Shown here: piece by piece, positions 2,711 through 63,999 of the stretch
How positions within the stretch are numbered: the stretch's first letter is position 1
Layout: every line of letters starts with the position of its first letter
From: an uncultured virus (IMG/VR IMGVR_UViG_3300017991_000058)
Taxonomy: Duplodnaviria; Heunggongvirae; Uroviricota; Caudoviricetes
Length of the DNA: 64,000 bases
IMG/VR virus record: IMGVR_UViG_3300017991_000058
Direction: 5' to 3' (one strand)
Notes under the pieces: generated by a model
Database searches by the model: none
Told to the model about the DNA's origin: nothing
Seen by the model: only the letters and a program-made list of their open reading frames with translations
Made by a program: the position numbers and the translations under genes

Positions 2711-3412
2711 TCAGCCCTGCCGACGATGGCGTCGGAGCGGGATCGGCAGGCTGAGCTGGCGCCCGGCGGCCCGCTCCTCCGCCAGCCTGCGGGAGCGGAG
2801 CCAGTCCTGAAACAGGATGGCGACGGACGGGAACCCGGCGACGCTGGCCGGGCGGCCGTCGGGTCGGACGTACCGGACCCGCCCGCGGATGAAGTCGACT
2901 GCGGCCGCGGGGTAGCGGAGCCTGACGACTCCTCTCTCCGACCTCCGGGCGGAGACGTACCTGAACCACCAGGCCTTCCCGACCTTCGCCGGGAGGAGCG
3001 CGGCGACGAGCTCGGCCCGGCCGGAGACGACCTCGCGGACGGCCTTTGCGACCCACAGCTCCTCCGCCCTGCCGTACGGCGGGTTCATCCAGCACCGACC
3101 TCTCCACGGGAGAGACAGACCGTCGTCGTCGACGGTGAAGTACCTGCTGCAGACGTGGAGCTCAGCGCTGGCCGCGACGTCCAGGTCGAACGCTCCGTCC
3201 GCCCACAGGTCGGCGTACCGGCGGACGAGCTCGTCGGGGGACCCCCACTCCCACGTCTCGGCGGGTAGCAGGAGAGGGCCAACGCGCCGCTCTGCGCCCC
3301 CCTCAGGGCCCGGGAGAGGTCCGGGGGTGCCGGAGACCGCCCCCGGAGCGACGGGCGGCTCGAGACGGAACAGGGCCATCTGGCGTTGAAGGTCGTCGTC
3401 GCTCCAGCTCAT
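2711..3412 (-). CDS. phage N6-adenine DNA methyltransferase (Dam-like)
   Basis: WGSP, FDLDVAA, YFTVDDDGL and catalytic NPPY motif. Confidence 0.85.
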   Translation of the reverse strand: MSWSDDDLQRQMALFRLEPPVAPGAVSGTPGPLPGPEGGAERRVGPLLLPAETWEWGSPDELVRRYADLWADGAFDLDVAASAELHVCSRYFTVDDDGLSLPWRGRCWMNPPYGRAEELWVAKAVREVVSGRAELVAALLPAKVGKAWWFRYVSARRSERGVVRLRYPAAAVDFIRGRVRYVRPDGRPASVAGFPSVAILFQDWLRSRRLAEERAAGRQLSLPIPLRRHRRQG

Positions 3413-3418
3413 GGCACC

Positions 3419-4024
3419 TCACACTATCAGACCGACCTCGTCGCGGATGGCGGCGCCGAGATCGAAGCCGGGCTCGGAGCGGAACGCGTCCCCGTGCTCG
3501 GCCCACGCCACGGCCTGCGTCGCCGAGTCGTACCTGGCCGCCAGGGTCGACCGCGACCACAGTCCGGACGCCTCGAGCACGGCTCTAGCGTACCCAATGC
3601 CGCCCATAGCGACCCGGTCTCGGCCCGGAGACACCCGCCATCTGCACGTCGCCACGGCCTCCCACATCGACTCTCCGGCCCACACGACGGAGAGTCGAGA
3701 CTGAGGCGGAGCGTCCACGGTCTCGGCCATGACACTGACGACGGACACCACCTGGGGGAATCCGGACAGTGAGGCCCACCGGACGGACGCGGACAGGAAG
3801 GCCATCTCGAGCGCTCTTCGGAACCCGGCGACAACCGCGAGCGCGATCATAGGCCGCGGATCGTCCGCCGCCAGCCAGGCGGTCCGAAGGCACCCGCCGT
3901 GCCGATCGACCCACTCCGCGACGAGGCGCGGCGCGGTGCGCCCCTTGACGTGGACGAGATCGCCGCACACGGCGTCGAGCCCGCCCAGCCGCCAGACGGC
4001 GTCGATCCGATCAACGCCCGTCAC
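3419..4024 (-). CDS. hypothetical protein
   Basis: 201 aa ORF in the gene chain. Confidence 0.5.
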   Translation of the reverse strand: MTGVDRIDAVWRLGGLDAVCGDLVHVKGRTAPRLVAEWVDRHGGCLRTAWLAADDPRPMIALAVVAGFRRALEMAFLSASVRWASLSGFPQVVSVVSVMAETVDAPPQSRLSVVWAGESMWEAVATCRWRVSPGRDRVAMGGIGYARAVLEASGLWSRSTLAARYDSATQAVAWAEHGDAFRSEPGFDLGAAIRDEVGLIV

Positions 4025-4445
4025 GATCGTCCCCCGAGACTAGCTTGAACCCGGTCGTGTCGCCGGAGGCCAGCCTGAACACGGTTCCGACGCGGATCGA
4101 CCTGCTCATCCAGACGGCGACCCCGGGCCGAATCAGTACCGGATACACGACGGACTGCGGTGCCGCCGGCGGGACGTACCTGCGGCGCAGGTCCCACACG
4201 ACGGGGGTAACGGCCCGGAACAGGACGTCACCGCCGTAGGGCGAGCCTCCATCGACGTCTCCGACGAGGACGGCGACCATCGCGGCGTAGCCGTCCTCGG
4301 GTACCAGTCGACGCCGCGGCGTCCCGCCGAAGTACTCGTCGACGATCGGAGACGACGTGTAGGCCACGAGGAAGCGCCCCCCGAGACGGTACGCGGCGAC
4401 GACGTCCGCGTCGGCGTGGGCGTCCAGCAGCTCGACGACGTCCAT
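4011..4445 (-). CDS. hypothetical protein
   Basis: ATG at 4445 overlaps upstream TGA; MDVVELLDAH... 144 aa. Confidence 0.5.
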   Translation of the reverse strand: MDVVELLDAHADADVVAAYRLGGRFLVAYTSSPIVDEYFGGTPRRRLVPEDGYAAMVAVLVGDVDGGSPYGGDVLFRAVTPVVWDLRRRYVPPAAPQSVVYPVLIRPGVAVWMSRSIRVGTVFRLASGDTTGFKLVSGDDRDGR

Positions 4446-4771
4446 CAGTTCCCGGCCAGGCGCCAGAGCGCGTCTGCGTAGTCGACGACGACGTCCGCGT
4501 CGGACCTCAGCTCGTCGTACCGAGACGAGCGCCTGCGGACGACGTCGTCGATCATCAGCAGGTTCCCGGCCATTACGGCCGGGTCGCATCCCCCTCCGCC
4601 GATCTTGGCGGCGAGCGACTTCAGCCTTGAGTTGGCGGACTCGGCGAACCAACTCGACGCACCCCCGGCGACGGCCTCGCGCGTCAGCTCGTCGAACAGC
4701 TCGCCGAGGTCGACGTCCAGGGCCCCCAGCCGCCGGATGCTGTCGAGACGGTCGTGCTCGTCCCGGTCCAC
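4445..4771 (-). CDS. hypothetical protein
   Basis: 108 aa helical ORF, tight packing. Confidence 0.55.
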   Translation of the reverse strand: MDRDEHDRLDSIRRLGALDVDLGELFDELTREAVAGGASSWFAESANSRLKSLAAKIGGGGCDPAVMAGNLLMIDDVVRRRSSRYDELRSDADVVVDYADALWRLAGN

Positions 4772-4772
4772 G

Positions 4773-5198
4773 CTACGTCACCTGCCCCCCGAGTCTGACG
4801 AGAGACCCCGCGGCCGAGACGTCGCGCTCCAGGACCGCAACCGCGCCCGCGACGGGCCCCGGGATCGCCACACCCCGCTCAGGCATCAGCCGGGCGAGAC
4901 GGACGACGTACCTCCCGTGGTGGACGAGCTGGCCGCCGGACGGCTTTACGACGACGTCCGCCGTTCGTCGGCGACGAATCGTCTCGTGGGCCATCCACCG
5001 CAGGACACCGGAGGACGACTTCAGCGTGACCGGGGGCTCTCGGCAGTCGATCGGCGGCGAGCGGTCGACCCCGTCGATGTGGTCGACGATCCCGCGGATG
5101 TGCATCAGCTCGTCCGGCCAGAGCGCGTCGTCCGGAAGGGACGTCAGCCACTCGACGGTCTCGCGTATCCGCCGCACCATGTCGCCGCGGAGCGTCAC
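4773..5198 (-). CDS. hypothetical protein
   Basis: 141 aa, GTGA overlap with upstream gene. Confidence 0.5.
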   Translation of the reverse strand: MTLRGDMVRRIRETVEWLTSLPDDALWPDELMHIRGIVDHIDGVDRSPPIDCREPPVTLKSSSGVLRWMAHETIRRRRTADVVVKPSGGQLVHHGRYVVRLARLMPERGVAIPGPVAGAVAVLERDVSAAGSLVRLGGQVT

Positions 5199-5449
5199 CC
5201 CTCGGACTTGCGCTCGGCCGCGGCGGCGGCCCGCCGCTCCCTCATCATCGCGGTGTGCTCCGACCTCCGGACGGCCGATGCCCGCTCGAGCTGCTCGTGG
5301 AGCTCGCCAACCCCGGCGGCGTGGTCGAGGACGATCCGCATCCAGGTGTACATAGGCATCCCGTCCTCGGCGGCGGCCGCCCTCCAGGCGTCGAGCTCCG
5401 CCTGGCTGGCCTTGATGCTCGTCTGCGCGTCGTATCTGGACATCGACAC
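5195..5449 (-). CDS. ribbon-helix-helix-like small regulator
   Basis: TSIKASQAELDAWRAAAAEDGMPMYTWMRIVLD fits a strand-helix-helix pattern; GGAGGG RBS. Confidence 0.5.
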   Translation of the reverse strand: MSMSRYDAQTSIKASQAELDAWRAAAAEDGMPMYTWMRIVLDHAAGVGELHEQLERASAVRRSEHTAMMRERRAAAAAERKSEG

Positions 5450-5506: not shown

Positions 5507-6232
5507 TCAGCGGGAGTCCGGGTCTCTCAGAGCGAGCCACGCCGCGAAGTTGTGCCACCGCCAGACGCAGTCGACGTCGGAGAACCCGGCGGCCCGGAGC
5601 AGCTCGACGTTCCACCTGGCCGTCACAGGAACCAGGACCCCCTCGAGCGCCAGGCGCTTTCGCTCTACGTCGTCGCGGGAGTAGCCGCGCCGCTCCTTGC
5701 TCTCGAGATAGGCGTCTACCATGGCGGCGTCGAGCTCCGCGGTGTCGCCAAGCACCTTCTCGACGACGATCGCGGCGCCTCCCGGAACGGTTGACCGGTA
5801 GATGGACCGGACGATCTGGTGGCGGTATTCGATCGGCGTGAACTGCAGGACGAGGACGGCCATCGTGACCGACGCCGACACGTCCGGGTAGCCGCGGCGC
5901 AGGTCGTGGTCCAAGACGACGACGCGGCCGGACTCGATCCCCTCCGCGAACCGCTCCCTGGCGGCGGCGAGCATCGGGGCGGACACCTCGACGCCGACCA
6001 GCCTGCACGTCGAGCCGCGGACGGCCTCGAACCTGGCCAGGGCCTCGCCCCTCGCGCAGCCCAGGTCGACGACGTCCGTCCCGCCCGAGGCGTAGCGGAG
6101 AGCGAGCCCCAGAACGACGCTGCGCATGACCTCGTACTGGGGGATGGACCGCGCCAGCATGTCGTCGAAGACGCGGGTCACCTCTCCGTCGAACTCCCAC
6201 CGGTCCGGAGCATAGCCGGTGTCTCTCGTCAC
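5507..6232 (-). CDS. cmoA: carboxy-S-adenosyl-L-methionine synthase (CmoA family)
   Basis: WEFDGEVTRVFDDMLARSIPQY, DLGCARG, VLQF, PGG..VVEKV, YSRDDVERKRLALEGVL (the KR Arg equivalent to E. coli R199), C-terminal WHNF. Confidence 0.92.
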   Translation of the reverse strand: MTRDTGYAPDRWEFDGEVTRVFDDMLARSIPQYEVMRSVVLGLALRYASGGTDVVDLGCARGEALARFEAVRGSTCRLVGVEVSAPMLAAARERFAEGIESGRVVVLDHDLRRGYPDVSASVTMAVLVLQFTPIEYRHQIVRSIYRSTVPGGAAIVVEKVLGDTAELDAAMVDAYLESKERRGYSRDDVERKRLALEGVLVPVTARWNVELLRAAGFSDVDCVWRWHNFAAWLALRDPDSR

Positions 6233-7617
6233 TTCGGACCTCCGACAAGTCGCTTGAACTCCGCGGCGTAGTATCTCCGCGGGTCACCGACGGCGGCGGC
6301 CGCGGCGCCCTTCAGCCCGGCGCCGTCCTGGAACGCCAGCTTTGGCCTGTGCACGACGCGGTCCGGGAGCAGCCCGGAGTAGGCCCGCGACATGACGGCC
6401 TTCGGGCGTCCCCTACTCGCCACGGCGCTCTGGGGGAGAGACAGCGCGAACTCGACGAGACTCGTGTGGAGAAACGGAAGGCGGCACTCCACCCCGTGGG
6501 AGAGAAACACCTTGTTGCACCTGGCGAAGTTCTTCCGGTGCTGGTCCAGAAAGGTGCGCTTCCTGTACGCGTGCCAGCCGAACTTATGAACGCCGTGGTA
6601 GCTGAACCCGTAGCTGGCCATGAGCTCGTCCGCCCCCTCCCCACTGAACGTGACCTTGAACCCGTCGGCGCTCATGGATCTGGCCAGGTGGAGGCACGCC
6701 CACCCTATCTCCACCTGGGCCTTGTGGGGCATCTCGATCCGCCGGACGACATCGGAGAGGTCGTCCGCAGTCGGGGCCGGGACGGCGATCTCTCTCAGCT
6801 CCGTCCCGAGCCGGTCGGCGACCTCGCGGGCGGCCAGGAGGTCCGGGCTCTTCGGATCGCGGTACGCGACGAACGCGACGACGTCGGGAACATGAGACAC
6901 CAAGTGGGACAGGACCGAGCTCGAGTCGATCCCGCCGCTCAGGAGAGCGCACACGGGGACGTCGGAGATCGACCTCTCGGCGACCCCGGACGCGATCTCC
7001 ATCCGCATGCGCTCCGCGGCGGAGTCGAGCGTCGTCTCTGCAGGAGCCGCCGGCGCGTCGTACCATCTCTCGACGGACATCCCGCCGGAGCCGTCGATCT
7101 CGACGACCGTGCCGGGCTCGACCCACGTGGCGGCGGCCGGGGGGAGCCCGGCGGCGGCCACGGCCCTGATCTCCGATGCGAAGGCCACCCTTCCGCCCAC
7201 GCGCGCGACGTGGAGCGGAACCTCCCCGAACCTGTCCCGCGCCAGCCTGAGAGTCTCTCCGTCCGCCCACGCCACGGCGAACATGCCCTCCATCCGCGAC
7301 AGCCCGGCGACGCCCCAACGGTCCAAAACGGCTGCGACGACCTCCGTGTCCCCGTCCGTGCAGAACGACTCCCCCAGAGACTCGAGCTCGGCTCTCAGGC
7401 CGAGATAGTTCCACAGCTCTCCGTTGTAGGAGACGGTGACGTCGCCGCGCGAGAACGGCTGGTCGCTGCGAGAATCGAGGTCCAGGATCGCGAGCCTGGT
7501 GTGACCGAGCCAGAACGGCCCGACGCGGACGACTCCGATCGCGTCGGGACCCCTGTGGCGCAGCGCGGCCACGGCCGCGTCGACGGGGTCTCCGACCCCT
7601 CCGACTACCCCGCACAC
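6229..7617 (-). CDS. asnB: asparagine synthetase B-like glutamine amidotransferase / ATP-dependent amide ligase
   Basis: N-terminal MCG nucleophile, HRGPD, GHTRLAILD, YNGELWNY, DTEV, RDRFG, LLSGGIDSS PP-loop, SGEGADE, VECRLPFL. Confidence 0.9.
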   Translation of the reverse strand: MCGVVGGVGDPVDAAVAALRHRGPDAIGVVRVGPFWLGHTRLAILDLDSRSDQPFSRGDVTVSYNGELWNYLGLRAELESLGESFCTDGDTEVVAAVLDRWGVAGLSRMEGMFAVAWADGETLRLARDRFGEVPLHVARVGGRVAFASEIRAVAAAGLPPAAATWVEPGTVVEIDGSGGMSVERWYDAPAAPAETTLDSAAERMRMEIASGVAERSISDVPVCALLSGGIDSSSVLSHLVSHVPDVVAFVAYRDPKSPDLLAAREVADRLGTELREIAVPAPTADDLSDVVRRIEMPHKAQVEIGWACLHLARSMSADGFKVTFSGEGADELMASYGFSYHGVHKFGWHAYRKRTFLDQHRKNFARCNKVFLSHGVECRLPFLHTSLVEFALSLPQSAVASRGRPKAVMSRAYSGLLPDRVVHRPKLAFQDGAGLKGAAAAAVGDPRRYYAAEFKRLVGGPK

Positions 7618-8066
7618 TCGGCCGCCTCCGCCAGGAACCGCCGAGCCGCCTCGACGTTGACGGGGTTGTTCCAGAACCTGACGATCCCGGACGGGTGCGG
7701 GATGACCGCGATCTCGGCCGGCCCGTCGAGCGCGCCGGAGACCCAGACCATGAACCCGATGCGGTCGACTCTGACTCCCAGCGACTCGGCCATCCGTCTA
7801 GACGCCAGAACGACGCGCCTGCCTAGAAGCTCCATCCGAGACCGTCTCCAGGCCCTGCGGACGGCCGACTTCGGAAGGGAGTCGCCCTTGCGGCCGCCGC
7901 TCCGGCCGGGCCACTCGGACAGCAGGTTGGCCGGCTCGAACATCGCCAGAAGTTCGCCGTGGTCAACGCCTGCGATCTTGGCCAGCCGCCTTCCGCTGTC
8001 TCCGGAGAACGGTCTTGACGGGTCGGACTTCCTGCTCGGCGCCTCGCCCAGAATGACGACTCTCAT
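7605..8066 (-). CDS. uracil-DNA glycosylase superfamily protein (family 4-like, no Fe-S cysteines)
   Basis: ATG at 8066 overlaps MTase stop; ILGEAP, PFSGDSG, IPHPSG motifs. Confidence 0.75.
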   Translation of the reverse strand: MRVVILGEAPSRKSDPSRPFSGDSGRRLAKIAGVDHGELLAMFEPANLLSEWPGRSGGRKGDSLPKSAVRRAWRRSRMELLGRRVVLASRRMAESLGVRVDRIGFMVWVSGALDGPAEIAVIPHPSGIVRFWNNPVNVEAARRFLAEAAECAG

Positions 8067-9481
8067 GGCCTCGGGCTCCCGGCGAGAACGCCGGCCAGCG
8101 CCCTGGCGACGGCCATCATCATCGGCGGCGGGACGGCGCGGCCGAGGCGCTCCCACTGCTGGGAGTACGAACCGACCAGCCGGAAGTCGTCGGGGAACCC
8201 GCAGATCCGCCGCAGCTCGGCGATGGAGAACTTCCTCCGCTCCGTCGGATGGATGACCCCGGCCGCTCCCGGATTCCCGGCCGTCTGGGTCACCGTCGGG
8301 CACGGGCGGTCCGGATGGGCCCGCACGAGGTTGAAGTACTTGTCCGACTGCTCGCCCGGCTTCAGCTTCCGGCTCGCCTTGTCGATGGCGTAGCCGTCCA
8401 GAGGGGCTCCGGTCTCGACCCTGGGGTCGTCGCTCTCGACGAAGAACCTCGGGTCCTGAGCGCAGACGGCCGGGAACGGCGACTCTGGGTCCAGCCGCTG
8501 CCCCTTCGACTTGAACGGCGCCCCCATGCCGCGGACGACCGTGAGCTCGGACTGGGTCTTCGGGCGGTTGTGCGTCATCACCGTCGGGACCGGGAGGTCT
8601 ATGGACCGCTCCCCCTTTGAAGTTCCGACGGACGTCTCGATCTCGTGGCGATGGTAGCCCGCACCGCGAGCCGTTGTGACGGTCGGCGCGGGGCGGTCCG
8701 CAGCGTCGAAGTCGTAGCCCTCGAAGTACCCGTGGCCCTCCGACCTGAACCTCCCGATCCACGGGCACGCGTCTCTCAGCGAGTAGCGATATCCGAGCGG
8801 GCGGGGGAACGGAATGTCTACGTCCGGCGCGACGTCGTCTCGCAGCCCGACGAAGATCAGCCGCTTCCGGACCTGGGGGACGCCGAGCCACTGAGCGTCG
8901 AGCTCTCGAATCGCCACGCGATACCCGCACTCGACGAGGCGGCCGTAGATCTCTTTCAAATAGCCCTTCGCCTTGCCGGCCCGGAGCCCCGGGACGTTCT
9001 CCGCGACGAACGCGCGCGGTCTTATCCCGTCGACGATCCGCGCGAACTCCCAGAACAGGTCGTCGGTCCTCTGGACGGTCGAGCTGTACTTCTTCTCCTC
9101 ACCCCAGTGCTTGTCTCGCTTGCCGGCCAGAGAGAACGACGCGCACGGAGGGCTCCCCTGGACGACGTCGATCTCCCCGACGCCCATCCCGACGGCGGCG
9201 AGGATGTCGGACGGGTCGACGGAGCGGATGTCGCTCGAGTCGACGGGGCAGTCCGGGAAGTTCATCTCGTGGACGGCGCGCGCCTCGGCGACGAACTCGC
9301 TGGCCCACAGCACGCGATACCCTGCCCACTCGAACCCAAGACAGCTCCCCCCGGCCCCGGTGAACGTAGAGACGACGGTGAGTCCGTTGGTCCCGGCCGC
9401 GGCCCGGATCTCGCCCATGGACGGGATCGCGTAGGGCGGGCGCTCGTCGGAAGCGGCGGGGGCTGATTCGTCCGGCATCAC
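8063..9481 (-). CDS. C5-cytosine DNA methyltransferase fold enzyme, probable carboxymethyltransferase
   Basis: motif I FTGAGG, IV GSPPCASFS, VI ENV, VIII QVRKR, IX ELRRICGFPD; motif X is GRAV instead of GNAV. Confidence 0.9.
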   Translation of the reverse strand: MMPDESAPAASDERPPYAIPSMGEIRAAAGTNGLTVVSTFTGAGGSCLGFEWAGYRVLWASEFVAEARAVHEMNFPDCPVDSSDIRSVDPSDILAAVGMGVGEIDVVQGSPPCASFSLAGKRDKHWGEEKKYSSTVQRTDDLFWEFARIVDGIRPRAFVAENVPGLRAGKAKGYLKEIYGRLVECGYRVAIRELDAQWLGVPQVRKRLIFVGLRDDVAPDVDIPFPRPLGYRYSLRDACPWIGRFRSEGHGYFEGYDFDAADRPAPTVTTARGAGYHRHEIETSVGTSKGERSIDLPVPTVMTHNRPKTQSELTVVRGMGAPFKSKGQRLDPESPFPAVCAQDPRFFVESDDPRVETGAPLDGYAIDKASRKLKPGEQSDKYFNLVRAHPDRPCPTVTQTAGNPGAAGVIHPTERRKFSIAELRRICGFPDDFRLVGSYSQQWERLGRAVPPPMMMAVARALAGVLAGSPRP

Positions 9482-9518
9482 GGTCTCCTATGCAGACACA
9501 GTACGACAAGGGCCCCGG

Positions 9519-10700
9519 TCATCGAAAGGTCTCCAGCATGCGCCAGAAGTCCGGGTAGGACTTGGACACGCACCCGGCGTCGCGTACCGTCACGCCGGGA
9601 ACGCGGAGGCCGACGAGCCCGAAGGCCATGGCCATCCTATGGTCCCTCTCCGGGTCCAGCTCGACGCCGCCCCTGAGCGGGCCGGGCCGGATCGTCAGGC
9701 CGTCTACCCGCTCCTCGGCCCGGGCGCCCAGCTTGACGAGCTCGCGGCACAGCACGGCGATTCGGTCGCTCTCCTTGACCCGCAGGTGCTCCGCTCCGAC
9801 GATCGTCGTCTCGCCGTCGGCGAATAGAGCACAGGCGGCGACCGTCGGGGCGAGGTCCGGTGCGTCGCGAAGGTCGATCCGCCGCCCGACGCCACTGACA
9901 ATCGACTCGAGGAGCTCCGGGAAGGCGCGGTCGCCCTGCGCGGAGTCTGGGGCGACGTTCGACACCTCGACCCGCCGCCCCGTCAGGAATCCGGCCGCCA
10001 GCGGATAGCTGGCGCTCGACCAGTCCCCCTCGACTCGAAAGCGCGTCGCTCTCGGCCCGCCGGGCCAGACGCGGAATGCCCCGCCCCGCCTCTCGACGCG
10101 GACGCCGAATCTCTCCATGACGCCCAACGTCAGGTCCACATAGGGACGCGACGGAACGGAGCCGACCACCTCGATGTCGATCCCGCCGGGCAGCCCGGCA
10201 CCCATCAAGAGCAGCGCCGACAGCTCCTGGCTCGACAGCCCGGCGACGATCCTGGCGCGGACGCGTCCCCGCGAGTCGACCGCGCGGCCGTCTAGCGCCA
10301 CGGGGGGGCAGCCCGGCCCGCCCCGCTCCTCGACGTACACGCCGAGCCCGCGGAGAGCCGACAGGAGGGCGGGCATCGGACGACGACGCATGGCGAGATG
10401 CCCGTCGACAACGTAGGACCCTGTCACCACGGGTGCCAGCCCGGTGATGAACCGCACCGCCGTCCCGGCGTTCCCAAGAAGGAGCGTAATCGACGGCGCC
10501 CGGAGCCGCGCAGGCGGCCTGACGGTCCAGGTCTCCGCCTCGTCGTCGACGGAGACTCCGAGAGCGCGCAACCCCGCGACCATGGCCCGGCTGTCGTCGC
10601 AGTCCAGAGGACACTCGACGACGCACGGAGACTCGCCAAGCGCGGCCAGCACGATGGCGCGCTGCGTCACGCTCTTCGACGGCGGGACGCTGACGATCAC
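9519..10700 (-). CDS. aroA: 3-phosphoshikimate 1-carboxyvinyltransferase (EPSP synthase)
   Basis: PPSKSVTQRA, LGNAGTAVRF, RRPM, SSQ, PSRPY, EGDWSSASY, HLRVKESDRI, DHRMAM, KSYPDFW; GTG at 10700 overlaps upstream TGA. Confidence 0.93.
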   Translation of the reverse strand: MIVSVPPSKSVTQRAIVLAALGESPCVVECPLDCDDSRAMVAGLRALGVSVDDEAETWTVRPPARLRAPSITLLLGNAGTAVRFITGLAPVVTGSYVVDGHLAMRRRPMPALLSALRGLGVYVEERGGPGCPPVALDGRAVDSRGRVRARIVAGLSSQELSALLLMGAGLPGGIDIEVVGSVPSRPYVDLTLGVMERFGVRVERRGGAFRVWPGGPRATRFRVEGDWSSASYPLAAGFLTGRRVEVSNVAPDSAQGDRAFPELLESIVSGVGRRIDLRDAPDLAPTVAACALFADGETTIVGAEHLRVKESDRIAVLCRELVKLGARAEERVDGLTIRPGPLRGGVELDPERDHRMAMAFGLVGLRVPGVTVRDAGCVSKSYPDFWRMLETFR

Positions 10701-11296
10701 CTGGGCTGGCCGTCCCACTCGTAGCCGCACTTCGGGCACTGGTACTGGCACTCGGCGGTCGGGTCTATCGGGGTGAAGTCGCCCGGAGGTTCGACGGTGT
10801 TGGCCCCCGCCGAGGCAATCAGGGTCTCGGCGAGCCTATCGATGTCGTCCGCGTTGAATCCGACGCCCCTGAGCGCGGCGTCGCTCTGCTCGTTCAGGTC
10901 CGAGAGGATCGCGTGCAGCTTCTCGTCGTCCCAGCCGCCGACCTCGCCGAGCCTGTTGTGGGCGAGGATGTACGCCTCCGCCTCGAGCTCCGACTCGAAC
11001 GCGATCCCCCGCAGGACGGGAACGAGCCACTCCCCGTCCTCGTCGACGCGGATGCGCTCCGGAGGGTCCACCCCGTCGTCGCGCATCGAGATCAGCGCGT
11101 CGACCCGGCCGTGGCCCTCGACGAGCCGTCCGGTGTTCTCGTCGACGGCCACGGGGTCGTTGAACCCGAACCTGTCTGCCGAGTCGGCGATCCCGTCCTC
11201 GTCGTGGGTCTTCGGGTTGCGCGGCCACTGCACCACATCCGACAGAGGACAGTAGTCGATCCAGAGCTCACCGCTCTTCCGTGCGTCGTCAGCCAT
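10697..11296 (-). CDS. ParB/Srx-like N-terminal domain protein with C-terminal Zn ribbon
   Basis: WPRNPKTH, FGFNDPVAVD, LVEGHGRV, ILAHNRL; ends CPKCGYEW. Confidence 0.8.
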   Translation of the reverse strand: MADDARKSGELWIDYCPLSDVVQWPRNPKTHDEDGIADSADRFGFNDPVAVDENTGRLVEGHGRVDALISMRDDGVDPPERIRVDEDGEWLVPVLRGIAFESELEAEAYILAHNRLGEVGGWDDEKLHAILSDLNEQSDAALRGVGFNADDIDRLAETLIASAGANTVEPPGDFTPIDPTAECQYQCPKCGYEWDGQPR

Positions 11297-23850: not shown

Positions 23851-25818
23851 TCACTCCGTCCCCTCGAGCCCGAGCTGGCCGAAGTCGACGTCGACGACGT
23901 CGAACCCCTCCCGTTCGTACGCCCGCCGGCGGGCGGATGAGTGACGCTCTAGGATTCCGTTCCCCCTGTCGTCGATGTCCCACAGCTCGAACGTCGTCGA
24001 GCCGTCGGGTCCCGGGCGCATCCCCCTCCCCGCCCGCTGGAGGGCGGCGATCGTCGACTTCCCTCCGCAGGCGACCACGATGGACGCGAGCGACGGGATG
24101 TCGATCCCCTCCTGCCACACGACGCTGGCGACGACGACGTCTATGTCTCCGCGCGCCAGGAGCTGCTTCGAGCCCGCCCTCTGCCGCTCGGCCGTGCTCC
24201 CCCAGACGAGGGCGACGCGGAGCCCGGCGCGCTCGAGCGCGGCCGTCAGCGCCTTTCCGTGCGCGATCTCTCGGACGTAGACGATCGACGGCTTGGCCGC
24301 CGCGACGGCGACGTCGACGATGCGGCGGTTGCGCTTGCGGGAGCGGACGATCGCCTCGCCGTACACGCCGCGGTAGGTGGGGCGAGAGACGTCCTGCTCT
24401 ACAACGACCATCTGGACGTTGGGGCGGGCGAGAACGCCGGCGTCCACCAGCGTCTGGGTCGGTATCCGGTGGACGACGGGGCCGAGAGCTCCGATGGCCA
24501 TGAGGCTCCGTCTGTCGTCGCGGTCGAGCGGAGTCCCGCTCAGACCGATCCTGTACCGCGCGTTGGCCAGCGCCATGGACACCGAGTAGAACGTGTCGGC
24601 CGGGAGCGTGTGGCAGTTGTGGACGACGAGCCCGGAGGCCCCTACGAGATAGGTTTCCGGGCCAGGGACGCTGAGATTGTAGACGAGACCGTCCGGACAC
24701 ACTCCGCCGTACGTTCCATCACGGCCTGGTTCGAGAACCTCAACACGGTCCACCCGCACGACTCTAAGAACGCCGTCTTCCTGACATCGGCCGCCCGACG
24801 TCCCAGTGAACCGTGGGTCGGTCCGTCGATCTCGACGGCGATCATGAGCTCCCGATTCCCAACGTCGCACATTATACCCGCATAGGGCTTGTGCAGGTAC
24901 GTATCCGTGGCTGTCCGTCAGAAACGGGTGCCCCGGCGTACAGACGACAGTATCCCCGTTCGACAGCCAAAGCCTAACTAGACCGGACGGACGGCGAGAG
25001 AACACGTCTGCCACTCGACGGCAACAGAGTCGGGACGTCTCGGCGTCGTAGGAGACGACAACGTCTCCAGGCCGAATCGTCTCGATCGGGCGAGAACCGA
25101 CCATGGTTCCGGCAGGGAAGCACTCGTCGACGACGAGACCGCCCGTCCTCCTGACGAGCTCGACTCCGACAGGAGTTCCGATCTTGGATCGCAGCGACTG
25201 GAACGTGGCGACCGTCAGCCGCGTCCCCGCCACCGCCAGCCCGTCTCCGACGACGCCGACGAGCGGAGCCCCGAGCCGCCATGCGGCGTCGTCTGGGACG
25301 TCGAGGTCGGTCCCCTTCAACCGCGAGACGAACCGGGCAGCCGCCTGGTACATCAGACCCTTCCTGTGGACGACGAACAGCCAGTGGACCGTCGGAAGGA
25401 CGCGCGTCAGCCCGACGAGGATCTCCGTCTTCCCGCTCCCCGTCGGCATCCATAGGACCCCGCGCTCTCGTCGGACGGCTGCGCGGAGCGCGTCGAGTTG
25501 GTAGTCGCGAAGCCACGCGACGTCAGCCTCTCGATTGATCTCCGGGGCCGCCGGCCGCCTGTCGCTGACGACGACGCGATGCCCGGCGTCCTCGGCCCTT
25601 ATGCGGACGAGAGGCAGGAGTCCGGCCGGGAACGTCTCGTCCAGAACGTCGAACATGGAGACCTTCGGCGGCTTTACGCGCTTCACGCGCCGCGTCTTCC
25701 GGTTCTGTCGGAACGCACGACGGACGTCCTCGTACGAGAGGTACTCGCGCAGCCACGAGCGCTCGTCGTCCGTGCACGACGCGACCCGGCAGAGCGTGTT
25801 CGTCAGGTCGAGGTGCAC
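23851..25818 (-). CDS. SF2 (UvsW/Rad25-like) DNA helicase, intein-containing
   Basis: LRDYQ, MPTGSGKT, VVDE/CH split by intein, GLSGTP, EGIDIP, QRAGRGMR. Confidence 0.88.
   Translation of the reverse strand: MHLDLTNTLCRVASCTDDERSWLREYLSYEDVRRAFRQNRKTRRVKRVKPPKVSMFDVLDETFPAGLLPLVRIRAEDAGHRVVVSDRRPAAPEINREADVAWLRDYQLDALRAAVRRERGVLWMPTGSGKTEILVGLTRVLPTVHWLFVVHRKGLMYQAAARFVSRLKGTDLDVPDDAAWRLGAPLVGVVGDGLAVAGTRLTVATFQSLRSKIGTPVGVELVRRTGGLVVDECFPAGTMVGSRPIETIRPGDVVVSYDAETSRLCCRRVADVFSRRPSGLVRLWLSNGDTVVCTPGHPFLTDSHGYVPAQALCGYNVRRWESGAHDRRRDRRTDPRFTGTSGGRCQEDGVLRVVRVDRVEVLEPGRDGTYGGVCPDGLVYNLSVPGPETYLVGASGLVVHNCHTLPADTFYSVSMALANARYRIGLSGTPLDRDDRRSLMAIGALGPVVHRIPTQTLVDAGVLARPNVQMVVVEQDVSRPTYRGVYGEAIVRSRKRNRRIVDVAVAAAKPSIVYVREIAHGKALTAALERAGLRVALVWGSTAERQRAGSKQLLARGDIDVVVASVVWQEGIDIPSLASIVVACGGKSTIAALQRAGRGMRPGPDGSTTFELWDIDDRGNGILERHSSARRRAYEREGFDVVDVDFGQLGLEGTE
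24616..25122 (-). mobile_element. intein (169 aa) in the DECH box
   Basis: starts CFPAGT, block B CTPGHPF, ends VYNLSV...LVVHN followed by Cys; more A/T-ending codons than flanks. Confidence 0.9.
24642..24872 (-). pseudogene. DUF559/Vsr-like endonuclease C-terminal remnant in an alternative frame within the intein
   Basis: IAVEIDGPTH...DVRKTAFLESCGWTVLRFSNQAV; N-terminal half missing (in-frame TGA about 16 codons upstream). Confidence 0.72.
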
Positions 25819-26099
25819 GGAGCGTCCTCGCCGGCGTCGGGCTCGTCGTCAGGGACGTCGAGCTCGTCCAGGTCGGTGTCGACGATCCGCGCCGCGATCG
25901 GCGGGGCGGAGTAGTACGCGGCCAGGGACTCGCGGCTGATGAACCGGAACCTTCCGTGCCGAGTCTCGTCGAGCTGTCCGTCGTCCAGCGCCCGATAGAC
26001 CGTCGCGATGTGCACCCCCGCCAGGGCGGCCGCCTCGGCCACGGTAACGTATCCGGCGTCGCGCATGATCTGCCGGAACTTCGTCAGTTTCTTCGCCAT
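25803..26099 (-). CDS. excisionase-like HTH DNA-binding protein
   Basis: YVTVAEAAALAGVHIATVYRALDDGQL...RFISRESL. Confidence 0.8.
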   Translation of the reverse strand: MAKKLTKFRQIMRDAGYVTVAEAAALAGVHIATVYRALDDGQLDETRHGRFRFISRESLAAYYSAPPIAARIVDTDLDELDVPDDEPDAGEDAPCTST

Positions 26100-27292: not shown

Positions 27293-27725
27293 GACGCATC
27301 ACCTTCATTCGTTGGGCGGCGATCCTCCTGTCGGCGCGCCGCTGAGAGTTCACCACCGAGAGCCCGTGGGACGCCGCTGTGATCCGAAGCCTGTGGGCGA
27401 ACCGCGGGCTGACGACGTCCGTCGACAGCACCGAAGGGTCTCTCTCGTCGGTCGTGACCCACATCGTCTGGACGAGAGCTCCGGAGTCGTCGCGGAACAG
27501 GAGCCCGGACCTCAGGACGAGCCTGCACCCGACGAGCCCGCGGCCGGTCGCGCCCCCGAGTCGCCTGGAGGCGTCCTCCATCCGCAAGACGGACGCCTCG
27601 GCATCCGGGAGCCGCTCGGCCAGCCACTCCACCGTGTCCGAGCCGACGTGAGCGTCGACGACGGCGGCGACGGAGCGAGCTGCCCCCGCCGATCGCGGGG
27701 GCAGCACGAGCCCGTCCCGGCTCAC
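27279..27725 (-). CDS. hypothetical protein
   Basis: 148 aa, GTGA overlap with the MoxR stop. Confidence 0.5.
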   Translation of the reverse strand: MSRDGLVLPPRSAGAARSVAAVVDAHVGSDTVEWLAERLPDAEASVLRMEDASRRLGGATGRGLVGCRLVLRSGLLFRDDSGALVQTMWVTTDERDPSVLSTDVVSPRFAHRLRITAASHGLSVVNSQRRADRRIAAQRMKVMRHGEG

Positions 27726-28903
27726 GGGCGGACCCCCGCCGCCTCCAGGATCGGCTGGAGAGCGATCAGGCTCTTCTTCGCCTCTCCGCCCTGGTGGAGT
27801 CGCTTCCGGACGAGCGCCCTGGCGGCCGGGACCGTCAGGTCGGCGGCGTCTCCGACCATCCCTCCGATGATCTCCCAGAGCTTCTCAGAGCGCTCGTTCT
27901 GCCGCTCGCACTTTCCGGACGTGACGAGGGCGGAGCAGCTCGAGAGGACTGCAACGGTCCGGTCGAGACGCGCGGGCTCGTGCTTGAACTTCACCTTCCC
28001 GTCCAGGACGGCCTCCGGGTCGGGGAGCTTGACCTTCGTCCGAAACGTCGTCAGCTCGGAGCCGGCCCCCGGGCCGACGAACGACGCGACGAGCTCGTCG
28101 ACGATGATGTCGTCTGCGCCGTGGACGTCGCAGCCCGCCAGAGCGCGGGTCGCCATCTCCCAGGTCCGGTGGCTCGGCCACGCCTTGCCGCGACCGGAGC
28201 TCCCGGCATCCGGCATCCGGTGGAGCAGGTCGGGGCGCGCCTTCACGAACCCTGCGACCACGCCCTTGGCCTTCGCGAAGGCCGTCGGCCATGCGGCCAT
28301 GACGCGGGCCTCCTCGGTCTCGGACGAGATCCTCTCGTCGTCGCCGACGTCGTCCGTGCTGGCGCCGTTCGCGCCGATCAGCCAGTCGCACCAGTCGGCC
28401 GGCTCGGGGCTCTCCCAGTTCAGGTGCCCGAAGCGGTTCGCCAGGGGCGGGGTTAGGTCCCAACCGCCGGCGGCGTCGGCCACGGGGTTGGCCGCGGCGA
28501 CGAAGCGGACCCCTCGCGGGAAGTAGTAGTCGCCGAGAGCTCCGTCCAAGACCATCCTGAGCAGCGCCGCCTGCGTCGCCGGGGCCGTCGTCGTCAGCTC
28601 GTCGACGAACACGACGCCGCGGCCGTCGCCGTCGATCTCGAAGTCAGAGGCCCACCCAGGCGGAGCGTACTCCATGAAGCGCCGCCGGCCCCGCTCGACC
28701 GGGATCGGCAGCCCGCCGAAGTCGGCCGGCTCCCTGATGGACGCCACGAGGGTGTGGCACATCAGTCCGAGCGCCGTCGCCACGGTCTCGATCACCCTGG
28801 ACTTGCCTACGCCAGGCTTCCCCCACCAGAGCAGCGGAAGACCCCACCTCCCGTTCAGACCCGGCGTGAACATCGATACGTGAAGAATCTTGCGAGTGTC
28901 CAT
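27722..28903 (-). CDS. MoxR-like AAA+ ATPase
   Basis: WGKPGVGKS, EPADFGGLP, FVDEL, QAALL, AANP, LANRF. Confidence 0.88.
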   Translation of the reverse strand: MDTRKILHVSMFTPGLNGRWGLPLLWWGKPGVGKSRVIETVATALGLMCHTLVASIREPADFGGLPIPVERGRRRFMEYAPPGWASDFEIDGDGRGVVFVDELTTTAPATQAALLRMVLDGALGDYYFPRGVRFVAAANPVADAAGGWDLTPPLANRFGHLNWESPEPADWCDWLIGANGASTDDVGDDERISSETEEARVMAAWPTAFAKAKGVVAGFVKARPDLLHRMPDAGSSGRGKAWPSHRTWEMATRALAGCDVHGADDIIVDELVASFVGPGAGSELTTFRTKVKLPDPEAVLDGKVKFKHEPARLDRTVAVLSSCSALVTSGKCERQNERSEKLWEIIGGMVGDAADLTVPAARALVRKRLHQGGEAKKSLIALQPILEAAGVRP

Positions 28904-28951
28904 TCTCTAGCCTCCCTGTGTGTCTGGCTGCACCCGTCAGCAGCTACGGAG

Positions 28952-29108: not shown

Positions 29109-29984
29109 ATGACGGGAAACGAGATCATGGTTGTCGAGGACGGGGCGAACATCGCTGGGCGCGTCGTCTACTGGAGACTCGAGGGGACGCTGGAGCTGGA
29201 CGTCCTCTCCGACGCCTGGCTGGCGGCCGGGCTGGACGAAAAGCTACTACCTAACCCCCCCACGCCCGAGCGCGCGTTGAAGAGGACGCTCCAGTCGTTC
29301 TCCTCGAACAGGACGCTCGTCAGGCCGCTCGGCGGCGGGGTGTCGGGATACGCCCTCATCGAGGAGCACGCCGACGAGCGGCGTCTAGAGCACGCCCAGG
29401 GACTGACGGCGGTAATCGACACCGCCGGCGAGCGGGCGGTTCCGGCGCTCGACGTCGAGCCGTCGGACCACGAGATGGCCGCAGACGTCAGGCTCCGCTA
29501 CGCGTCGACGCTCATGGAGCTCGACACCCGCGACGCGTCCGGGTGGCTCGGGAAGCTCGTCGAGGACGTGTCGGCCGTCGGGCTGCGCGATAAGGGCGGC
29601 GTCTACTTCGTGCCCAGAGACTCGCTCCCGACCTGGGACCGATACGTCGAGGTGATCGGCGACGTCTCCGACCACCACGTGTTCCAGATCCCGGCGATGA
29701 GGACGCGCGACGCGATCGCCGCGGTCGTCGACGCGATCGTCAGCGAGGCCACCGCCGTCGCCGGCGACATCGAGAGAGACCTCGCCGACGAAGACCGCGA
29801 GCTCGGAAAGCGGGCCCTCCGCACCCGCGTCGAGCGATGCGAGAGGACGCTGGCGAAGGTCGGACGCTACGAGGAGCTGCTGGACGAGAAGCTCGACGAC
29901 GTGCGAGACCGAATCGGAGAGCTGAGAGCGCAGGTCGCGACCGCCCTTCTGATGGCGGAGACCGGAGAGGAGACGGACCGATGA
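29109..29984 (+). CDS. MoxR/vWA-associated protein (DUF3150/DUF6744-like)
   Basis: VVYWRL, LPNPPTPERAL, LRDKGGVYFVP, C-terminal coiled coil; context. Confidence 0.6.
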   Translation: MTGNEIMVVEDGANIAGRVVYWRLEGTLELDVLSDAWLAAGLDEKLLPNPPTPERALKRTLQSFSSNRTLVRPLGGGVSGYALIEEHADERRLEHAQGLTAVIDTAGERAVPALDVEPSDHEMAADVRLRYASTLMELDTRDASGWLGKLVEDVSAVGLRDKGGVYFVPRDSLPTWDRYVEVIGDVSDHHVFQIPAMRTRDAIAAVVDAIVSEATAVAGDIERDLADEDRELGKRALRTRVERCERTLAKVGRYEELLDEKLDDVRDRIGELRAQVATALLMAETGEETDR

Positions 29985-31492
29985 AGAAGGAACTGTCGCC
30001 GAGCCAGAAGCTGTCTACGGGGCGCCTCATGGCCCGCGAGCGGCTGCCCTACTTCGGGGCGATGCTCCACGCGCTGACCCCCGTCGAGATCCCGGAGGGG
30101 GCGCTCGACACGTTCGGCGTCCTACCGAACAGCGTCCTCCTGGTCGACAACGCGGCGCTGCGGAGGTGGACGATCGAGGAGACCGCAGCGGTGCTGGTCC
30201 ACGAGGGGCTCCACATCGTCCGCGACCACGACAAGCGCCGAAAGGCGATCGGCGCGAACACCTACGGCGAGTCCCGCGTCTGGAACCTGGCAGCCGACGT
30301 CGAGATCAACGATGACCTGAAGGACGCCGGTCTCACGCTGCCCGAGAACGCGATCTATCCGAAGACGTTCGGGATGGAGCCCGGGCTGACGGCCGAGATC
30401 TACTACGGCGAGCTGATGAAGATGGCCCAGACCTGCCCGATCTGCGGGGGCAATCCGAACGACGGCGACCGGGACGGCGACGGCAATGGATGCGGATGCG
30501 ACGGCTCCTGCGGCGAGGACGGCTGCTCCTGCGGAGACGGCGGAGACGCCGAGGACGGGCAGAAGGACGGCAAGAAGGGCAAGGGAAAGGGAAAGAAGAG
30601 CAAGGGCAAGAAGGGCAAGGGCAAGAAGGGTGACGGCAAGCAGGGAGGCAGGCAGGGAGGCCGGTGCCCGTTCTGCGACGGCCCGCAGAAGCCTGGAGCC
30701 GGCTCCGGCTGGTGCGGCTCGGGCGGCGGGCGCCCCGTGCCCGGAGAGCCCGACATGAAGTCCAAGTCCGAGCAGGCCGGACGGTCCGAGGTCGAGCTGA
30801 AGTCGCTCCGTCGCCAGGTCGCAGAGCAGGTCCGCGAGGCGAGCGAGAAGTCGAGAGGGACCGTCCCGGCGGGTCTCGTGCGATGGGCCGAGGCCGAGCT
30901 GGCCCCGCCGCGGATCGACTGGAGGACCAAGCTGAGCCAGGTCGCAAGGACGGCGGTTGGATTCAGGCCGGGCGCCGTCGACTTCCGCTACAACCGCCCG
31001 AGCCGCCGACAGAGCGCTCTGGGCTACGGGATGGGGTGCCCGGTCCTCCCGGCGCTCATCCGCCCCGTCCCGCAGGTCGCGATCGCCGTCGACACGTCCG
31101 GGTCCATGTCGGCCGAAGACCTCCGGATCGCCGTCGAGGAGTCGGACGGCATCCTCAAGGCGATCGGTGCCGAGGTGACGTTCATCGCCTGCGACGCCGC
31201 GGTAGGCGCCGTAAAGCCCGTCAGGTCGGCGCGGGAGCTCGCCGAGAGCCTCGTCGGCGGAGGGGGGACGGACTTCGCCCCGGTGTTCGAGACGGTCGAG
31301 CGGCTCCGCCCCCGCCCCGAGGTGATCGTCTACGCGACGGACGGATGCGGGCCCGCCCCTCTGGCGGCCCCCGCCGGCGTGCGGGTGATCTGGCTGCTCG
31401 TCGGCCAGTACCGCCAGCGCCCCCACTTCCCGGCCGGCGAGTGGGGGGAGTTCATCGACGTCGACGACCTGTACGACGACGAGGCCGCGTGA
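29981..31492 (+). CDS. metallopeptidase-like + vWA domain protein (DUF2201-like)
   Basis: HEGLH, WNLAADVEIN, MIDAS DTSGS, GGGGTDF, TDG; K/G- and Cys-rich linker. Confidence 0.85.
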   Translation: MKKELSPSQKLSTGRLMARERLPYFGAMLHALTPVEIPEGALDTFGVLPNSVLLVDNAALRRWTIEETAAVLVHEGLHIVRDHDKRRKAIGANTYGESRVWNLAADVEINDDLKDAGLTLPENAIYPKTFGMEPGLTAEIYYGELMKMAQTCPICGGNPNDGDRDGDGNGCGCDGSCGEDGCSCGDGGDAEDGQKDGKKGKGKGKKSKGKKGKGKKGDGKQGGRQGGRCPFCDGPQKPGAGSGWCGSGGGRPVPGEPDMKSKSEQAGRSEVELKSLRRQVAEQVREASEKSRGTVPAGLVRWAEAELAPPRIDWRTKLSQVARTAVGFRPGAVDFRYNRPSRRQSALGYGMGCPVLPALIRPVPQVAIAVDTSGSMSAEDLRIAVEESDGILKAIGAEVTFIACDAAVGAVKPVRSARELAESLVGGGGTDFAPVFETVERLRPRPEVIVYATDGCGPAPLAAPAGVRVIWLLVGQYRQRPHFPAGEWGEFIDVDDLYDDEAA

Positions 31493-63366: not shown

Positions 63367-63999
63367 CTAGACGGCCCTGGCGAACGCGCCCCTCTCGACG
63401 GCCCTTCGATAGACGTCGACCGTCCGCGCCGCGGAGGCGTCCCAGGTGAAGTCGCGGACGCGGCGCATGCCGAGGTCGACCAGCTCGGCCCGGAGCTCTG
63501 GACTGCGCAGGTCCCTGAGCGCCGCGAGGATGCTCCCCGGACTCCGCGGCCGGACGACCATCGCGTACTCCCGGCCGGAGGCGTCGCAGACGATCTCCCC
63601 GAGCCCGTCGACGTCCGTGGCTATCAGCGGAGTCCCCATCGCCATCGCCTCTAGAGCGACGAGCCCGAACGGCTCGTGGATCGACGGCATCAGGACGACG
63701 TCGGCGAGCGCGTAGAGATCGCGAAGGGCCTGACCGTGCTTGAACTTCACCCAGCGGAGACGCTCCGGATGGGCCTGCTCGAGCGCCCTTATCCGCCGCG
63801 TCACCTCCCAACGCTCTACGTCGTTCTCGGTGTTCGCGGCGACGTCGCCGGCCATGACGACCTGCCAGCCGGAGTCCGCGCTCTCGATCGCCTCGATCAG
63901 AGGGACGACGCCCTTCATCGTCGCGATCCGCCCGCAGTACAGGGCGACCGGACGGCGGGAGATCGGCAGGCCGTCCGCGAAGCCAAGACCGCAGTCCGA
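63367..63999 (-). CDS. GT4 (GT-B) glycosyltransferase, 5'-truncated by the window edge
   Basis: LYCGRIATMKG, PSIHEPFGLVALEAMAMGTP, FTWD; frame open to the window end. Confidence 0.88.
   Translation of the reverse strand, partial: SDCGLGFADGLPISRRPVALYCGRIATMKGVVPLIEAIESADSGWQVVMAGDVAANTENDVERWEVTRRIRALEQAHPERLRWVKFKHGQALRDLYALADVVLMPSIHEPFGLVALEAMAMGTPLIATDVDGLGEIVCDASGREYAMVVRPRSPGSILAALRDLRSPELRAELVDLGMRRVRDFTWDASAARTVDVYRRAVERGAFARAV

Follow-up and report, generated by a model that had tools for sequence, protein, structure and literature searches.

The stretch of DNA analysed here, referred to as the window, is a 64 kb tailed-phage contig (IMG/VR record IMGVR_UViG_3300017991_000058) with a GC content of 70%. 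It represents about half of the phage, the same proteins being found on a public contig of 127,578 bp, so that the genome would measure at least 127.6 kb. Genes for sheath, tube, baseplate and tape-measure proteins are located at 42-62 kb of the window, and Pfam and PHROGs scans identify DnaB-, primase-, PolA-, SSB-, RecA- and SbcC/SbcD-like genes at 11.3-22.4 kb. Directly after the SbcC-like gene of this replication and recombination block, six consecutive open reading frames (ORFs) occupy the minus strand from position 11296 down to position 5507. These six genes, considered here as a candidate operon for the hypermodification of DNA cytosines, are the following:

10697..11296, minus strand: ParB-like protein, 199 aa (phrog_620)
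9519..10700, minus strand: aroA, 5-enolpyruvylshikimate-3-phosphate (EPSP) synthase, 393 aa in a 410-aa ORF (TIGR01356; PF00275, E 7e-93)
8063..9478, minus strand: cmoX, homologue of cytosine C5-methyltransferases (C5-MTases), 471 aa, or 472 aa from a GTG at 9481 (PF00145)
7605..8066, minus strand: protein with a uracil-DNA glycosylase (UDG) fold, 153 aa (PF03167)
6229..7617, minus strand: AsnB-like amide ligase, 462 aa (Asn_synthase and GATase_6/7 domains)
5507..6232, minus strand: cmoA, 241 aa (phrog_4752)

The genes are closely packed. A 12-nt gap containing a GGGAGGAG site separates the stop codon of the SbcC-like gene from the start of the ParB-like gene. The ParB-like gene and aroA then overlap by 4 nt (GTGA), as do cmoX and the UDG-fold gene (ATGA) and the ligase gene and cmoA (GTGA), and the UDG-fold and ligase genes overlap by 13 nt. 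Between aroA and cmoX lies a gap of 37-40 nt carrying an AGGAGA ribosome-binding site. The start of aroA at the GTGA is supported by the public gene call, which is also 393 aa long and 100% identical. When coordinates and junctions were read again from the sequence, the initial annotation held in all its details: six genes in a row, four of their five junctions overlapping, and a position downstream of the replication block, with the SbcC/D-, RecA-, SSB-, PolA-, primase- and DnaB-like genes upstream. A consensus scan found no promoter- or terminator-like site between positions 4300 and 13400, which is weak evidence at 70% GC. No near-identical DNA was found in cultured phages.

A related pathway has been described in Synechococcus phage S-B43, where CmoA makes carboxy-S-adenosylmethionine (carboxy-SAM), CmoX makes 5-carboxymethylcytosine (5cxmC) and CmoY, a homologue of asparagine synthetase, adds glycine (Yang et al., Nat Commun 2025, PMC12783734). 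This is the cyanophage pair of CmoA and carboxymethyltransferase to which the initial annotation had referred. As described there, CmoX enzymes are defined by an SPPC motif and by an arginine, Arg350 in the S-B43 enzyme (SpCmoX), that replaces the asparagine of motif X and touches the carboxyl group of carboxy-SAM. SpCmoX used carboxy-SAM only, and its R350N mutant used neither S-adenosylmethionine (SAM) nor carboxy-SAM (PMC12783734).

The MTase of the window has the features of this type. It belongs to the DNA_methylase family (PF00145, E 5.7e-50) and its top match in the PDB is SpCmoX itself (8YF3, E 4.3e-60), the runner-up being some 40 orders of magnitude behind (2.9e-21). Its GSPPC aligns with the GSPPC of SpCmoX, the SPPC motif spanning residues 110-113 with the cysteine at position 113, and its motif-X residue Arg448 aligns with Arg350 (ERLGRAVPP in the window, ERVGRMVPP in SpCmoX). 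Moreover, cmoX is encoded together with cmoA, which follows 1.8 kb further down within one string of overlapping genes. This linkage was followed in two sets of loci, one gathered through matches to the ligase or to CmoA (L001-L099), the other made of the best 80 of 145 IMG/VR relatives of the UDG-like protein. In the first set, the motif-X arginine is present in all 50 MTase matches found in loci with cmoA or the ligase. In the second set, an MTase match occurs within 6 kb in 29 of the 80 loci, 19 of them of the arginine type and 10 of the asparagine type; cmoA lies within 6 kb in 17 of the 19 loci of the arginine type and in none of the 10 of the asparagine type. That the arginine and cmoA travel together agrees with the published rule by which this residue discriminates between the cofactors. 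These data, drawn from sequence comparison, support the idea that the window MTase is a CmoX-type enzyme, predicted to transfer a carboxymethyl group to C5 of DNA cytosine, and that the neighbouring C5-MTase would be the consumer of carboxy-SAM, giving 5cxmC, as had been suggested initially. Compared with SpCmoX, the enzyme carries an insert of about 150 aa in the variable region for target recognition, and it therefore probably recognises a motif other than the GC site of SpCmoX.

The product of the last gene is predicted to be a carboxy-SAM synthase. It matches phrog_4752 with an E-value of 3e-62, its best structures are CmoA/YecO proteins (1IM8, 2.5e-27; 4GEK, 2.5e-26) and it is 50-63% identical to the products of cmoA genes adjoining cmoX in IMG/VR contigs. 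CmoA homologues were also found in 82 cultured-phage records. Tested against equivalog models, the protein remains below the cut-offs (144.2 bits for 193.3 with TIGR00740, 95 for 285 with NF011995); TIGR00740/CmoA is still its top family. This shortfall is a point against the assignment, and it leaves room for a different view in which the MTase makes plain 5-methylcytosine while CmoA serves host tRNA modification or a counter-defence that depletes SAM. In favour of the latter role, depletion of SAM has been raised as a possible side effect in PMC12783734. Nevertheless, this explanation appears highly improbable. The motif-X arginine is present, and the model enzyme carrying it accepted carboxy-SAM only and lost the use of either cofactor upon its replacement (PMC12783734); arginine-type MTases accompany cmoA and asparagine-type MTases do not. 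In addition, ARAGORN finds no tRNA in the 64 kb window, and Pfam and PHROGs scans reveal no CmoB-type family among the ORFs scanned, so that the absence of cmoB and tRNA noted at the outset holds for the window. Thus, the carboxy-SAM synthase predicted here resembles, by homology, CmoA of the E. coli CmoA/CmoB pathway for cmo5U34 in tRNA, but it is found without tRNA or CmoB match, and the predicted acceptor is a DNA cytosine.

The third enzyme of the core would act on the carboxylate of 5cxmC. The ligase combines an Asn_synthase domain (PF00733, 1e-42) with a GATase_6/7 domain (3e-30), and matches phrog_16728 (9e-124) and E. coli AsnB (1CT9, 5.5e-44). The residues expected for both half-reactions are conserved. 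M1, C2 and G3 are invariant in 11 homologues, the gene starting with a GTG followed by a TGC codon, as are the motifs of a class-II glutaminase (Cys2, RLxIxD, NGE, DTE). The PP-loop SGGIDS, of the SGGxDS type, has S227, G228, G229, D231 and S232 invariant in 11 sequences. Aligned over 95% of its length, the protein shares 50.3% identity with gp124 of Streptomyces phage TurkishDelight (UniRef100_A0A7T0Q3R0), a value above the threshold of about 30% identity of the published sequence similarity network. A0A7T0Q3R0 represents the second-largest ligase cluster, whose members have a glutaminase domain and for which glutamine-derived ammonia was proposed (PMC12783734). It is predicted from the sequence that the window ligase adenylates the carboxylate of 5cxmC and amidates it with ammonia derived from glutamine. 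The proposal that an AsnB-like enzyme converts carboxymethylcytosine further thus finds support in Cys2, in the SGGxDS motif and in the 50% identity to the representative of this glutamine-dependent cluster.

It may be imagined that the ligase attaches another amine, or yields another product, so that the final base would not be 5-carbamoylmethylcytosine. The characterised CmoY ligates glycine, several ligase clusters have no identified substrate, and no member of the glutamine-dependent cluster has been assayed (PMC12783734). Compared with E. coli AsnB, the window protein is also short of about 90 residues at its C-terminus (462 aa versus a 553-aa chain). We regard this outcome as very unlikely, since the intact class-II glutaminase, invariant in 11 homologues, points to ammonia channelling, and the same ammonia prediction was made for this cluster in PMC12783734.

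The order of these genes is conserved beyond the window. In TurkishDelight (NC_073473.1), gp121 to gp125 encode two ParB-like proteins, an MTase, a glutamine amidotransferase/asparagine synthase and a CmoA-like methyltransferase, in the same order as in the window and with identities of 50% for the ligase, 43% for the MTase and 30% for CmoA. The differences are that the TurkishDelight cluster has neither aroA nor a UDG-fold gene, that its genome has no chorismate mutase and that its CmoA is much more distant. TurkishDelight keeps the order ParB-CmoX-ligase-CmoA, and so do most of the 10 IMG/VR loci that a search with the ligase brought up; nine of these 10 have both CmoX and CmoA. The search of phage genomes for conserved neighbourhoods, recommended in the initial annotation, shows cmoX, cmoA, ligase and ParB-like genes occurring together. 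With S-B43, the operon shares CmoA, a C5-MTase with SPPC and the motif-X arginine, an AMP-forming ligase of the asparagine synthetase family and a ParB-like neighbour. It differs in that SpCmoY ligates glycine to give the glycinated base 5gcxmC, whereas the window ligase, having a glutaminase, should give the plain amide. Furthermore, aroA and a UDG-fold gene go unmentioned in the text and four supplementary files of PMC12783734.

Concerning the ParB-like protein, assigned to the ParB/Srx fold, similarity is found with phrog_620 (E 4e-31) and with phrog_498, a family corresponding to the N-terminus of DNA MTases (9e-25). Its C-terminus bears a CxxC...CxxC zinc ribbon, also found in the homologue of locus L016, described below. 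In most related loci, CmoX is immediately preceded by a ParB-like homologue, and ParBc genes are reported as frequent neighbours of CmoX in PMC12783734. In another modification system, phage thymine dioxygenases need a ParB-like partner for activity on double-stranded DNA (O'Toole et al., PNAS 2026, PMC13229309). In both cases a ParB-like gene adjoins a post-replicative enzyme modifying DNA bases; the partner there is an iron/2-oxoglutarate-dependent dioxygenase, while the ParB-like protein of the window has a C-terminal zinc ribbon (PMC13229309). By analogy, the protein is probably a DNA-loading partner or an activator of the cytosine transferase. What speaks against it is that no Pfam family, ParBc (PF02195) included, matches the protein at E<=0.1.

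The UDG-fold protein is recognised by PF03167 with 30.3 bits for a cut-off of 24.3, and by phrog_12275 (2e-22). Its AlphaFold2 model (mean pLDDT 85.5) returns UdgX, family-4 UDG and MUG/TDG as top Foldseek matches (E 4e-5 to 1e-3, TMq 0.52-0.66). The motifs GEAPS (GE/QAP) and PHPSG are present, which we take to correspond to motif A (G-E/Q-x-P) and motif B (HPS) of UDGs; G7, A9, N47 and P123-G127 are invariant in seven sequences. A search for the four cysteines of an Fe-S cluster was negative, the protein having a single cysteine in its 153 residues. It is for this reason, no Fe-S cluster being expected, that the protein does not belong to family 4 UDG or UdgX despite the closeness of the folds.

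Two roles may be envisaged for this protein. In the first, it would be a step of the pathway, either by assisting the ligase in base flipping or as a glycosylase removing unprocessed 5cxmC or unmodified bases. Such a role would fit with the position of the gene, which turned up in seven of the 90 further cmoA loci and lay between cmoX and cmoA each time, that is, in eight of eight clusters having it when the window is included (a weaker, additional UDG-like match occurs 5.4 kb upstream in locus L009). The gene overlaps both of its neighbours in the window, TDG in complex with 5-carboxylcytosine is among the structural neighbours of the protein, and a glycosylase-like enzyme, aGPT-Pplase, has been recruited into thymidine hypermodification (PMC8989533). 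A predicted complex between ligase and UDG-fold protein obtained a score of 0.00, which weighs neither for nor against binding. We nevertheless judge this role quite unlikely. Seven of 90 is a small share of the cmoA loci, and the family is found with different ligases or with none, as well as beside asparagine-type MTases without cmoA. A CmoX-like MTase of either cofactor type lies within 6 kb in 29 of the best 80 of the 145 UDG-like IMG/VR relatives. The other 51 have none within this distance, and in 42 of 50 of those records, complete genomes included, there is no C5-MTase anywhere; the family is thus not specific to these systems.

In the second view, the UDG-fold protein is probably a glycosylase serving DNA repair in phages, with a gene that frequently adjoins those of C5-cytosine transferases. 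This is because its family also adjoins ordinary C5-MTases and occurs in phages that have none. Ten loci (L273, L285, L288, L295, L306-L309, L336 and L337) have the UDG-like gene adjoining a ParB-like gene and an asparagine-type C5-MTase without cmoA, in a mostly divergent arrangement; they suggest a general pairing of glycosylase and C5-MTase in phages. C5-MTases can promote cytosine deamination when their cofactor is low, and in E. coli the Dcm-Vsr couple links a C5-MTase to an enzyme that repairs the damage left when the mark of this MTase is deaminated. Plausibly, the UDG-fold protein removes uracil or 5-substituted uracil arising from deamination at transferase sites. The likeness with Dcm-Vsr lies in the overlap of a repair-type gene with a C5-transferase gene here, and in the family adjoining C5-MTases in 29 of 80 loci; the difference is that Vsr is an endonuclease, whereas the window protein has a UDG fold and its link is statistical. 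Hence, of the hypermodification operon of six genes that had been proposed, the core is supported by sequence as a proposed pathway, and the UDG-fold gene has the look of a repair function and not of a step of that pathway. Its recurrence beside C5-cytosine transferases may point to a partner in repair for genomes that are heavily modified at C5.

The aroA gene encodes a bona fide EPSP synthase as judged from its sequence. The protein scores 362.1 bits for an equivalog cut-off of 287.25 with TIGR01356 (residues 19-408 of the 410-aa ORF), and matches EPSP synthases of the PDB with E-values of 7.5e-67 to 1e-57, the plant and E. coli structures among them at 7.5e-67 to 4e-58. The segments PSKS, LGNAGTA.R, R..RP, SSQ, S.PY, PD, KESDR, DHRMAMAF and KS.P (KSYP) are invariant in 16 homologues; they presumably correspond to the residues of the E. 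coli enzyme that bind shikimate 3-phosphate (S3P) and phosphoenolpyruvate (PEP). A repurposed enolpyruvyl transferase acting on DNA was considered and is ruled out by the equivalog score and by the conservation of the S3P/PEP residues. The GC content at third codon positions of aroA (0.85) is the same as in neighbouring genes, and the closest relatives beyond the phage's own contig are about 61% identical, those with a name being proteins from metagenome-assembled genomes of the Deltaproteobacteria/Bradymonadales type.

What such an enzyme could bring to the operon is suggested by related clusters. Prephenate is the co-substrate of CmoA, and its availability was left as an open question in PMC12783734. 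A chorismate mutase (PF01817) is encoded in seven of 91 cmoA-related records (6/50 plus 1/41), always at 3 kb or less from cmoX or cmoA:

L002:10095-10328, chorismate mutase, directly after cmoA
L016:3056-3277, chorismate mutase, directly after cmoA
L050:10735-10902, chorismate mutase, directly after cmoA
L060:11520-11753, chorismate mutase, 0.8 kb after cmoA
L009:6660-6833, chorismate mutase, just before cmoX
L003:3428-3655, chorismate mutase, 2.9 kb upstream of cmoX
L026:7902-8117, chorismate mutase, between ParB and CmoX, which is the slot of aroA in the window

Five of the seven genes immediately adjoin cmoA or cmoX. Because chorismate mutase makes prephenate, the supply of the precursor appears as a recurrent addition to these operons, and the aroA gene of the window would most simply be a second solution to the same need. 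EPSP synthase is among the rate-limiting steps reported for engineered aromatic pathways in E. coli. In both arrangements an enzyme of the shikimate pathway or of prephenate synthesis is embedded in a cmo operon. The related clusters encode the last step, from chorismate to prephenate, whereas the window encodes EPSP synthase, an earlier step after which the chorismate synthase and chorismate mutase of the host would still be required. The idea that AroA feeds the precursor pathway is in this way supported indirectly, by chorismate mutase genes inside seven of 91 related clusters, once in the slot of aroA. In the literature searched, no link of chorismate mutase or aroA to a phage CmoA was found, and the terms chorismate, mutase, aroA, EPSP and glycosylase are absent in this sense from the text and four supplementary files of PMC12783734.

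One of these loci deserves a separate description. L016:515-3295, on a high-GC contig, encodes CmoX, CmoA, chorismate mutase and a ParB-like protein that shares the C-terminal zinc ribbon; terminase genes follow directly. Since this cluster contains no amide ligase, its product would end at 5cxmC. A fusion of cmoA with the chorismate mutase gene, suggested there by a 343-aa open frame, was rejected: this frame is an artefact of the high GC content, and the genes lie side by side in different frames.

A competing view of aroA is that of a general auxiliary metabolic gene for aromatic amino acids, or of a mere passenger, the modification running on host prephenate. The rarity of the arrangement speaks for it. 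No aroA was found in 90 other cmoA loci (tblastn) or in 50 whole related records (HMM, hidden Markov model search), and S-B43 and TurkishDelight function or exist without it. From the side of AroA, matches occur in 14 phage records, with a best identity of 37% and many of them resembling host contamination. No cmo gene lies within 10 kb of AroA in seven IMG/VR contigs, and no cmoA lies beside it among the 80 metagenome and 80 genome loci listed, where identities are at most 51% and 44%, respectively, the relatives at about 61% being outside that set. The nearest homologues are ordinary bacterial AroA proteins. As aroA is unique to this contig among the loci sampled, no co-occurrence statistic can be given for it. 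In addition, a lone mid-pathway enzyme need not raise flux, no chorismate synthase was found in the 50 related records, and no further shikimate or SAM-synthetase gene was found among the window ORFs scanned. The passenger view nevertheless seems to us unlikely. The gene is embedded in the modification operon and translationally coupled to the ParB-like gene, whose stop codon overlaps its start by 4 nt, an identity of 61% to the closest relative does not indicate a recent capture, and L026 has chorismate mutase in the very same slot. The embedding of chorismate mutase in seven of 91 clusters indicates that prephenate supply has been recurrently selected in these phages.

Taken together, the operon is likely to direct a post-replicative cytosine hypermodification of the CmoA-CmoX-CmoY type, to which AroA for precursor supply and a UDG-fold protein for repair would have been added. 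In this scheme, CmoA would turn SAM and prephenate into carboxy-SAM. CmoX, probably aided onto double-stranded DNA by the ParB-like protein, would then carboxymethylate C5 of cytosine to give 5cxmC. Finally, the AsnB-like ligase would adenylate the carboxylate and amidate it with the ammonia of its own glutaminase, leading to 5-carbamoylmethylcytosine (dC +57 Da). AroA, encoded between the ParB-like protein and CmoX, would raise the shikimate flux of the host such that prephenate suffices for a genome-wide modification, and the UDG-fold glycosylase would clear uracil or 5-substituted uracil where deamination strikes the sites of the transferase. The tools described show the membership of families, the diagnostic residues and the linkage of the genes; the chemical steps, the identity of the final base and what AroA, the ParB-like protein and the UDG-fold protein do are what we infer from them. 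Besides the objections already met for individual proteins, three points weigh against the scheme as a whole: the identity of the product, 5-carbamoylmethylcytosine, is a prediction from sequence; no soluble enzyme was obtained from the glutamine-dependent ligase cluster, according to PMC12783734; and the counts of loci and records given above include near-identical and related contigs.

As to novelty, the initial annotation knew of no version of this system with aroA, a glutamine amidotransferase and a UDG. This has to be amended in part, because the glutamine-amidotransferase type and its ParB association are already in PMC12783734, where 5-carbamoylmethylcytosine was also proposed as the product of the glutamine-dependent type. 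The core is thus known, and what appears new is the insertion of aroA, apparently unique, and the UDG-fold partner. A broader proposition may be put forward, tentatively: that prephenate supply limits DNA modification by carboxy-SAM, so that phages add enzymes of the aromatic pathway, that the operon makes 5-carbamoylmethylcytosine, and that a UDG-fold enzyme free of Fe-S proof-reads the deamination caused by the C5 transferase. If true, aroA would be the first viral gene of the shikimate pathway tied to DNA chemistry, and 5-carbamoylmethylcytosine, so far proposed but never demonstrated, would be a natural DNA base. The EPSP synthase of the window and the chorismate mutase of about 8% of the sampled clusters suggest selection acting on the supply of the precursor. 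A self-feeding operon of this kind could also help to produce DNA containing carboxymethyl- or carbamoylmethylcytosine in hosts that are low in prephenate.

Several other genes of the window may be mentioned. Directly downstream of cmoA, four small ORFs follow on the minus strand (5195-5449, 4773-5198, 4445-4771 and 3419-4024); Pfam and PHROGs recognise none of them, tblastn finds no counterpart in the related loci, and they are specific to this phage. At 2711-3412 (minus strand), 2 kb downstream of the operon, lies a gene for an N6-adenine DNA methyltransferase of the Dam family (PF05869, E 1e-17), so the phage probably carries a second modification, on adenine. A helicase ORF with ResIII and Helicase_C domains, at 23851-25848 (minus strand), gives weak HINT/intein-splicing matches at residues ~248-323 and may contain an intein. 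Further on, a MoxR-like AAA ATPase (phrog_1297) at 27722-28906 (minus strand) and a DUF2201 metallopeptidase/VWA-like protein at 29594-31492 (plus strand) are encoded on either side of a gene for a DUF6744 protein. Finally, a group-1 glycosyltransferase (also matching GT4-conflict, PF20706) is encoded at the edge of the window (63367-63999, minus strand), beside the structural genes.

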